DNA of 4,623 nucleotides, from the IMG/VR virus record IMGVR_UViG_2695420565_000023; one strand, given 5' to 3'. The notes under the pieces were generated by a model that ran no database searches, was not told the origin of the DNA, and saw only the letters and a list, made by a program, of their open reading frames with translations. The DNA is from a virus. Lineage: Duplodnaviria; Heunggongvirae; Uroviricota; Caudoviricetes. How positions within the stretch are numbered: position 1 is the first letter of the stretch; every line of letters starts with the position of its first letter. Shown one piece after another: positions 3,877-4,221 of this stretch. Made by a program: the position numbers and the translations under genes.

Positions 3877-4221
3877 TCAGGCCAGCGGTGGAGTCTTCAG
3901 AGAACCCGTAATTATTCCCGGTAGTTTTCCTCTGTAGGTTATCAACACATCCTGCGCCTCTAAAATTACGGGACGCTTTTCCGGTAACGGACCATCCCCT
4001 TCACATAACCCGGCAGCAACATCCATGAAAAACTGCTTCGCCTGCTTTTTCGCCTCAGCTTCGTAAAACTCCAGCGTGGCACCTTCAGTACGGTCAAGAC
4101 TAATCGCCACATGTGGCAACAACAACGACGGATGCCCGCCAATTTCAAGTGCCACAGTAACAGCAATCTTATCCGGGTAATTATTTATCTCTTTAACAAC
4201 CAGTTCGTATTTTTTCTTCAT
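3877..4221 (-). CDS. Hypothetical cytoplasmic protein, 114 aa, between holin and endolysin; possibly YdfR / DUF1327-like (unverified recollection)
   Basis: ATG at 4221 lies 4 nt after the holin stop, with SD GGGGAGA overlapping the holin 3' end (translational coupling). No TM segment or signal peptide. 50-nt gap to the lysozyme start. Confidence 0.7.
   Translation of the reverse strand: MKKKYELVVKEINNYPDKIAVTVALEIGGHPSLLLPHVAISLDRTEGATLEFYEAEAKKQAKQFFMDVAAGLCEGDGPLPEKRPVILEAQDVLITYRGKLPGIITGSLKTPPLA

Follow-up and report, generated by a model that had tools for sequence, protein, structure and literature searches.

A YdfR/DUF1327-Family Gene between the Pinholin and Endolysin Genes of a Phage-21-Type Lysis Cassette and Its Possible Role as a Late Accessory Gene

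Genes of the Lysis Cassette

The window analyzed here is the whole 4,623-nt stretch of tailed-phage DNA from the IMG/VR record IMGVR_UViG_2695420565_000023, and the gene under study was located at 3877–4221 on its minus strand, inside a lysis cassette. The gene upstream of it (4226–4441, minus strand) encoded an S21-type class II holin (pinholin) of 71 aa, as indicated by the matches to PF04971 (E = 4.8e-32) and to the holin families phrog_9876 and phrog_20. The holin is annotated as a 216-nt gene in BP-4795, PPyecE_EH1910, and E2865. It possessed a dual start, with Met1 at 4441 and Met4 at 4432. The dual-start motif was M-Y-Q-M-E-K (4430–4441, minus strand), and the longer product carried no extra positive charge, whereas phage 21 and Qin EssQ share the motif M-K-S-M. 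In the few cases compared, no correlation was observed between the dual-start motif and the presence of DUF1327.

Downstream of the gene under study, the R21-type SAR endolysin gene (177 aa; 3293–3826, minus strand) was identified by PF00959 (Phage_lysozyme, E = 1.5e-24) and by phrog_7 (endolysin). The N-terminus of the endolysin was hydrophobic and rich in Gly and Ala, with a Kyte–Doolittle 19-residue value of 1.74, and the residues E35, D44, and T50 were read from the translation. Together these features are the pattern of the R21 SAR endolysin. The stop codon of the gene under study and the start of R were separated by a spacer of 50 nt (3827–3876, minus strand). The spacer contained no motif like a Shine–Dalgarno (SD) sequence, showed no significant RNA structure (fold z-score 0.16), and gave no Rfam match.

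A P22-type antirepressor gene (P22_AR_N and ORF11CD3; phrog_524 Ant) was located between R and Rz at 2453–3022 on the minus strand. An antirepressor also lies between R and Rz in 933W and BP-4795, and it was found in only some of the related loci. Furthermore, a strongly hydrophobic ORF of 49 aa (2307–2456, minus strand) lay between the antirepressor and Rz, within the lysis cassette, and its annotation in BP-4795 (ORF50) and PPyecE_EH1910 is only that of a hypothetical protein. Further downstream were Rz with the embedded Rz1, a DUF3950 gene, and an HNH endonuclease gene.

Gene Call, Holin Junction, and Expression

The gene was an ATG-to-TGA ORF of 114 codons plus the stop. A preliminary description made from the letters of the window had placed a 114-aa gene at this position, and the minus strand, which it did not give, is now added. 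Read on the minus strand, the junction with the holin gene was ...CGG GGA GAC TAA agcg ATG. Accordingly, the holin stop codon TAA (4228–4226) and the 4-nt spacer agcg (4225–4222) together fill 4222–4228, and the start codon ATG of the gene follows at 4221–4219. The SD sequence GGGGAG (4236–4231, minus strand) was situated within the final holin codons, with its 3′ end 9 nt before the ATG. Both the 4-nt distance and the SD sequence in the holin 3′ end had been noted in the preliminary description and can be read directly from the sequence.

The product had a mass of 12.4 kDa and a pI of 6.1. Its maximum Kyte–Doolittle 19-residue mean was 1.09, compared with 1.83 for the holin, indicating that the protein has no transmembrane (TM) segment and is soluble, as previously proposed. 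In a scan of window positions 3200–4623, no promoter or terminator sites were detected above shuffled controls, and none flanked the gene in the right orientation. The gene is therefore simply part of the late transcript in the window. The lack of such signals around the gene, together with the invariant junction described below, makes its co-expression with the lysis genes, which had been claimed before, a sound inference. The anatomy of the junction and the conserved synteny were observed directly, and from them we infer translational coupling.

Family Assignment and Distribution

The protein matched the Pfam family PF07041 (DUF1327) over residues 1–112 with 145.1 bits against a gathering cut-off of 25 (E = 7.4e-43), and it matched phrog_406, a family of unknown function (E = 7e-63). 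It was 100% identical to the RefSeq entry WP_000731221.1, a "YdfR family protein" of the bovine STEC strain E. coli E2865. In addition, ORF47 of BP-4795, which was 96% identical, carries the same RefSeq name. By sequence comparison, membership of the YdfR/DUF1327 family is beyond doubt. In the preliminary description, no family could be confidently named and "DUF1327/YdfR-like" was offered tentatively; the guess was correct, and the former statement is superseded. The gene was already known as an object, since identical RefSeq and phage entries exist and the family is a long-established one, and it does not represent a new kind of element. Scans of the protein with NCBIfam and PADLOC gave no match. 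Moreover, PDB sequence searches with the full profile, the N-terminal-domain profile, and a 183-aa long form gave nothing below E ~0.2.

Homologues were detected by blastn in 3159 of the 5426 complete E. coli genomes (58%), in up to eight places per genome. An exhaustive HMMER profile search of 1.84 billion cluster representatives yielded 95 proteins at E ≤ 1e-3, many of which were fragments, and no annotated domain among these matches hinted at a function. When one genome per species was scanned in GTDB, the family was found in E. coli, E. ruysiae, E. albertii, and Shigella only, besides two MAG contigs that look like mis-binned Escherichia (E. coli) DNA. The DUF1327 family is large in numbers and narrow in phylogeny. 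Holin–DUF1327 "fusion" entries and truncated or frameshifted copies were numerous in the databases. A natural holin–DUF1327 fusion was considered and rejected, because the "fusion" proteins were frameshifted prophage remnants.

Protein Architecture and Predicted Fold

The alignment of 37 relatives revealed three parts, namely about 75 N-terminal aa, a conserved linker CEGD..PEKRP, and a nearly invariant stretch VILEAQDVLITYRGKLPGIITGSLKTPP. In the window, the N-terminal domain (aa 1–75; 3997–4221, minus strand) comprised three β-strands and one long helix according to AlphaFold2 and the alignments. The linker and the C-terminal tail (aa 76–114, GPLPEKRP-VILEAQDVLITYRGKLPGIITGSLKTPPLA, with the stop; 3877–3996, minus strand) were found by alignment in Escherichia alleles only. 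With the full alignment, AlphaFold2 modelled residues 1–75 well and the tail poorly (pLDDT 33–51). With an alignment of the N-terminal domain that included distant members, the pLDDT was 89.8 and the pTM 0.78. The predicted antiparallel strands 5–14, 18–27, and 37–43 and the helix 50–74 give the topology β-β-β-α. The topology of the dsRBD is α-β-β-β-α.

Only the first ~72 aa were conserved across the whole DUF1327 family. Among close members, Y5, R44, G47, L50–E54, and A57 were invariant in the alignments; in distant homologues, Y5, Y53, and E54 were invariant or nearly so. The family signatures, namely the YEL-V-K strand, R-x-EG, and the (L)EFYE-A helix start, were all present in the window protein. 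In Evi and in a group of distant homologues, the whole DUF1327 protein amounted to the N-terminal 72–76 residues. K-12 YdfR (103 aa) and mEp460 gp55 (104 aa) had only the first ~74–85 residues in common with the other alleles.

The tail was nearly invariant among the close Escherichia alleles, and other alleles carried different tails. Past VILEAQDVLITYRGKLPGIITGSLKTPP, the alleles either ended (LA, KW, ESQP) or were prolonged by helical extensions to 176, 183, or 329 aa. By adding C-terminal modules, the alleles reached lengths of up to 329 aa and filled the entire S–R interval (L041, L077, L079–L082, and L085; P0128). Moreover, the tail module PEKRP...GSLKTPP was also observed behind an unrelated coiled-coil N-terminus (P0153). 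The tail module behind an unrelated N-terminus and the C-terminal extensions indicate that modules are shuffled within the slot.

The coding status of the gene was examined with 29 distinct alleles of the 112–116-aa architecture, for which the mean dN/dS was ~0.35. Against the 61%-identical alleles, dN and dS were 0.56 and >2 for the N-terminal strands, 0.24 and 0.8–1.0 for the helix, and 0.09–0.10 and 0.21–0.31 for the tail, with a dN/dS of 0.18–0.3 per region. Purifying selection acts on the whole protein, and the gene is a genuine coding gene. The low divergence of the tail simply means that it was shared more recently, as expected for mosaic lambdoid DNA.

These results bear on the idea that the product has no function and that the ORF is either hitch-hiking mosaic DNA or a spacer that moves R from the coupled slot, by which endolysin translation would be lowered or delayed relative to the holin. 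In the 114-aa class, R lies 50 nt downstream without an SD-like motif, whereas in cassettes without the gene R sits on a strong coupled site, and the ratio of R to S translation may be altered when the gene is inserted. Such an idea is also in agreement with the many truncated, frameshifted, and fused copies in the databases. However, purifying selection was found in all three regions, the N-terminal fold predicted by AlphaFold2 was compact and confident, and the N-terminal domain was kept down to ~25–35% identity in other genera and contexts. Because selection acts on the protein, a role as a spacer is unlikely, and a product devoid of function is very improbable.

A Conserved Slot with an Optional Gene

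The locus set consisted of six annotated phages (37–96% identity), 80 IMG/VR loci, and 8 genome loci. The S21-type holin gene was directly upstream of DUF1327 in all 93 Escherichia-type loci having upstream sequence. The gap between the two genes was 4 nt in 91 of the 93 loci, the same distance as in the window, and 3 nt in the other two, and such a constant junction is far beyond chance. The R21-type lysozyme gene started 307–1033 nt past the DUF1327 ATG, a distance set by the length of the tail and by inserted ORFs.

The gene itself was optional. Among the 436 phage records with the S21 holin family, DUF1327 was present in 101 and absent from 335. In 933W, the holin of which was 91.5% identical, R starts 4 nt past the end of S and is preceded by the same GGGGAGAG motif. 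Since R occupies the same slot in 933W and 335 of the 436 holin records are without the gene, the coupling is a property of the slot that is inherited by whichever gene follows S. Lysis by S21 and R21 evidently works without DUF1327. Furthermore, the holin and DUF1327 alleles recombine independently: a 94% identical holin is combined with a 37% identical DUF1327 in Evi, and a 93% identical holin with a 55% identical DUF1327 in E. albertii.

The YdfR protein of the K-12 prophage Qin (b1555, P76160) was one of the closest systems known. The gene order there is essQ (S21-type holin), 4 nt, ydfR, rrrQ, and rzpQ/rzoQ (Rz/Rz1). The N-terminal 74 aa of the two proteins were 43% identical, and both proteins are soluble and of ~100–115 aa. 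Unlike the N-terminal part, the tail beyond residue ~74 was unrelated, being SEKVESYLQHQYSFKIENPANKHERPHHKYL in K-12 and CEGDGPLPEKRP...TPPLA in the window. Another difference was that the ydfR stop overlaps the rrrQ ATG, whereas the window gene has the 50-nt spacer before R.

The fixed position next to the holin raises the question of a lysis function. LydB of phage P1 is a proven antiholin without a TM segment, for which an early-lysis phenotype has been demonstrated, and RIII of T4 is a TM-less cytoplasmic antiholin factor. Like the window protein, LydB is a small soluble protein without a TM segment whose gene directly follows the holin gene and is translationally coupled to it, a likeness of position only. 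The lydB gene overlaps the lydA stop. A difference is that LydA is a canonical holin and not an S21 pinholin. Homology to LydB was rejected, as hhalign of the DUF1327 alignment against LydB gave a probability of 0.2%. A membrane antiholin of the lambda S107 or S21-71 type was also rejected, since the protein has no TM segment and the holin has its own M1/M4 dual start.

By analogy with LydB and RIII, the product might be a cytoplasmic regulator of lysis timing that binds the pinholin, for example at its basic C-terminal tail, or the SAR endolysin before its release. Triggering would thereby be delayed or sharpened by a TM-less antiholin-like factor, with a stoichiometry fixed by the coupling to S. 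The place after the holin stop was invariant in 93/93 loci although the flanking genes recombine freely, and Qin ydfR is coupled at both ends by the overlap with rrrQ. In addition, the N-terminal domain is acidic (−2.3), whereas the C-terminal tail of the holin is basic (+2.8), and P1 LydB provides a precedent. Against this, about three quarters of the cassettes with the same holin are without the gene and have R in the slot, no co-variation of alleles with the holin was apparent in Evi and E. albertii, and no PHROG annotated as lysis was found among the matches of the 114-aa protein. Such a lysis regulator is considered unlikely.

Homologues outside Lysis Cassettes

Stand-alone homologues of 72–86 aa, 25–42% identical, were found in other positions of late operons. 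They were located between the lambda-like tail genes M and L (L097 and gp24 of Salmonella phage ES18), between the tail genes I and J (L008 and L098), and upstream of holins of other families (L101). ES18 gp24 is annotated as a "possible moron; function unknown". The N-terminal domains of gp24 and the other stand-alone proteins were 30–42% identical to one another and to that of the window, with the same predicted β3-α fold, and the genes were on the same strand as the late operon. They differed from the window protein in having no C-terminal tail, in occupying the gpM/gpL and gpI/gpJ slots, and in being followed by a convergent ORF. Homologues in such varied late-operon slots are as expected of mobile accessory cargo and not of a dedicated pinholin partner, and they count against a regulator of lysis.

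Nearly all of the stand-alone homologues had a small helical ORF of 70–100 aa behind them in convergent orientation. Such pairs of DUF1327 and the convergent ORF were located at 2501–3040 in L003, 446–992 in L007, 1636–2160 in L008, 511–966 in L097, 1128–1610 in L098, 529–1070 in L101, and 2965–3517 in L106 (ES18). The convergent ORF was also present in Evi and PhiR12_2, inside the lysis cassette. Three of the convergent ORFs were homologous to one another (59–75% identity; phrog_25324), and the pair looks like a two-gene mobile cassette. Only PHROGs of unknown function were matched by these partner ORFs and by the C-terminal modules of the longer alleles.

The protein may be moron-type cargo with some other cytoplasmic target, the interaction of K-12 YdfR with RNase E described below being incidental. 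Candidate roles would be superinfection exclusion, an anti-defence or defence accessory function, or lysogen fitness (e.g., under cold or stress). As in morons, the gene separates genes that are direct neighbors in related phages, such as S and R in 933W. The stand-alone homologues, such as ES18 gp24, occupy classic moron slots of tail operons together with the convergent ORF, the C-terminal modules are shuffled to give proteins from 72 to 329 aa, and up to eight copies exist per genome. However, the promoter and terminator typical of a moron were not found above chance in the scan of window 3200–4623, the PADLOC scan gave no match, and the convergent partner ORF is absent here. With no promoter or terminator of its own, expression of the gene in a repressed lysogen is not expected. 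Cargo acting on another target is regarded as unlikely, with about the same probability as a regulator of lysis.

Published Data on YdfR and Proposed Role

Phages are known to target RNase E. The K-12 protein was recently linked to this enzyme (PMC13232886, RNA Biol 2026), where YdfR was recovered in a two-hybrid screen and its residues 1–72 sufficed to bind the N-terminal half of RNase E and, more weakly, RNase G. The two-hybrid signal was obtained with Rne(1–597), and a full-length fusion with a short linker was positive only with Rne(1–597). Moreover, FLAG-Rne(1–598) co-eluted with Strep-YdfR, and a DNase-resistant nucleic acid co-purified (PMC13232886). The YdfR used there was over-expressed and tagged, and according to the authors a contaminant might have carried the RNA. 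Over-expression altered few transcripts and did not affect growth (PMC13232886). The absence of a growth phenotype counts against a regulator of lysis, and the small number of altered transcripts, like the possible contaminant, counts against a role in RNA metabolism. The binding of RNase E and RNA was shown for the K-12 protein only; the window domain corresponds to its fragment 1–72, with 43% identity.

The same study placed K-12 YdfR among the proteins that, like RapZ, bind the catalytic half of RNase E, and it reported that the Qin lysis genes are cold-induced (PMC13232886). YdfR resembles RNase E regulators and hijackers such as RapZ, RraA/RraB, phiKZ Dip, and T7 gp0.7 in being a small RNase E-binding protein. 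In addition, over-expression of K-12 ydfR gave a 3-fold streptomycin MIC as a high-throughput hit (PMC12924614). The cold induction and the streptomycin result are consistent with moron-type cargo. A screen for envelope integrity (leakage) scored the Keio deletion of ydfR as CPRG-positive (PMC3879167), which favors a lysis regulator and speaks against cargo acting on RNase E. This phenotype may stem from polarity of the kan cassette on rrrQ, the lysozyme gene that follows. In the literature on DUF1327, ydfR, and the Stx or H-19B lysis cassettes, no functional study was found besides PMC13232886, and surveys of Stx phage lysis cassettes made no mention of a YdfR-family gene.

Of the roles offered in the preliminary description, accessory cargo was a better fit, as the gene is optional and has homologues among tail genes, while control of lysis timing fitted less well. 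Accessory cargo is preferred because 335 of the 436 holin records are without the gene, R takes the slot in 933W, homologues stand among tail genes, and the one partner found by experiment for a family member is RNase E and not a lysis protein. The gene is probably an optional passenger rather than a part of the lysis machinery. Tentatively, and with a confidence that falls somewhat short of probable, we propose that it encodes a dispensable late cytoplasmic accessory protein whose N-terminal domain binds a host macromolecule, RNase E or RNA being the sole candidate for which there is evidence. Against the proposal, the position and the coupling to the pinholin are strictly kept over alleles of 37–100% identity, which may reflect a link to lysis.

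The YdfR-family gene, a very common optional gene of lambdoid prophages in E. coli, is inserted precisely at the S–R junction of a phage-21-type cassette, where it occupies the coupled slot that R holds in cassettes without DUF1327. The Q-dependent late transcript would therefore carry the gene, and its translation would keep step with that of the pinholin. The product is a soluble cytoplasmic protein composed of the β-β-β-α domain of ~72 aa and an Escherichia-specific tail of 40 aa. In the proposed role, the N-terminal domain would be a small module that binds a host macromolecule, outside the membrane lysis machinery. Candidate targets are the N-terminal, catalytic half of RNase E and/or RNA, which the K-12 paralogue YdfR binds through the corresponding domain. 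RNA processing or decay could then be adjusted late in infection or when the late operon of a prophage is derepressed, and lysis would proceed without the protein.

It is conceivable, though unlikely, that phages use the DUF1327 domain as a module against the catalytic half of RNase E, or against the RNA substrates of the enzyme, and so re-tune the decay of late or toxin mRNA at the end of infection. If the RNase E reading is true, it would explain why a gene of the lysis cassette also stands alone among tail genes elsewhere. Less likely, the protein would be a TM-less regulator of a pinholin/SAR-endolysin system, the first of its kind. As neutral cargo, the gene would be one more mosaic insertion at a translationally coupled junction. 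In any case, it is a defined orphan gene that is easy to test, and RNase E provides one recent biochemical lead.

Occurrence in Shiga-Toxin Phages

Many Shiga-toxin phages have the gene in their late operon, and it occurs in 58% of the complete E. coli genomes. The Q-dependent late transcript of Stx1a and Stx2c phages also carries stx. If the gene modulates the timing of lysis or the stability of late mRNA, toxin release and phage yield could be affected. Among the records carrying the holin, DUF1327 was present in 41 of 47 for Stx1a and 15 of 17 for Stx2c, compared with 2 of 124 Stx2a-converting records. The skew in its presence is probably an effect of phage lineage.

The whole window was 97.8% identical to PPyecE_EH1910 and ~96% identical to BP-4795 and to many Stx1a, Stx2c, and some Stx2a phages. 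With BP-4795 and most Stx phages, it aligned in three pieces at a coverage of 78%. The segment 957–1832 (~870 bp), which lies between the DUF3950 gene and Rz, contained short ORFs only. Part of it is missing from BP-4795 and most Stx phages, and in PPyecE_EH1910 a single hypothetical protein of 74 aa is annotated there.
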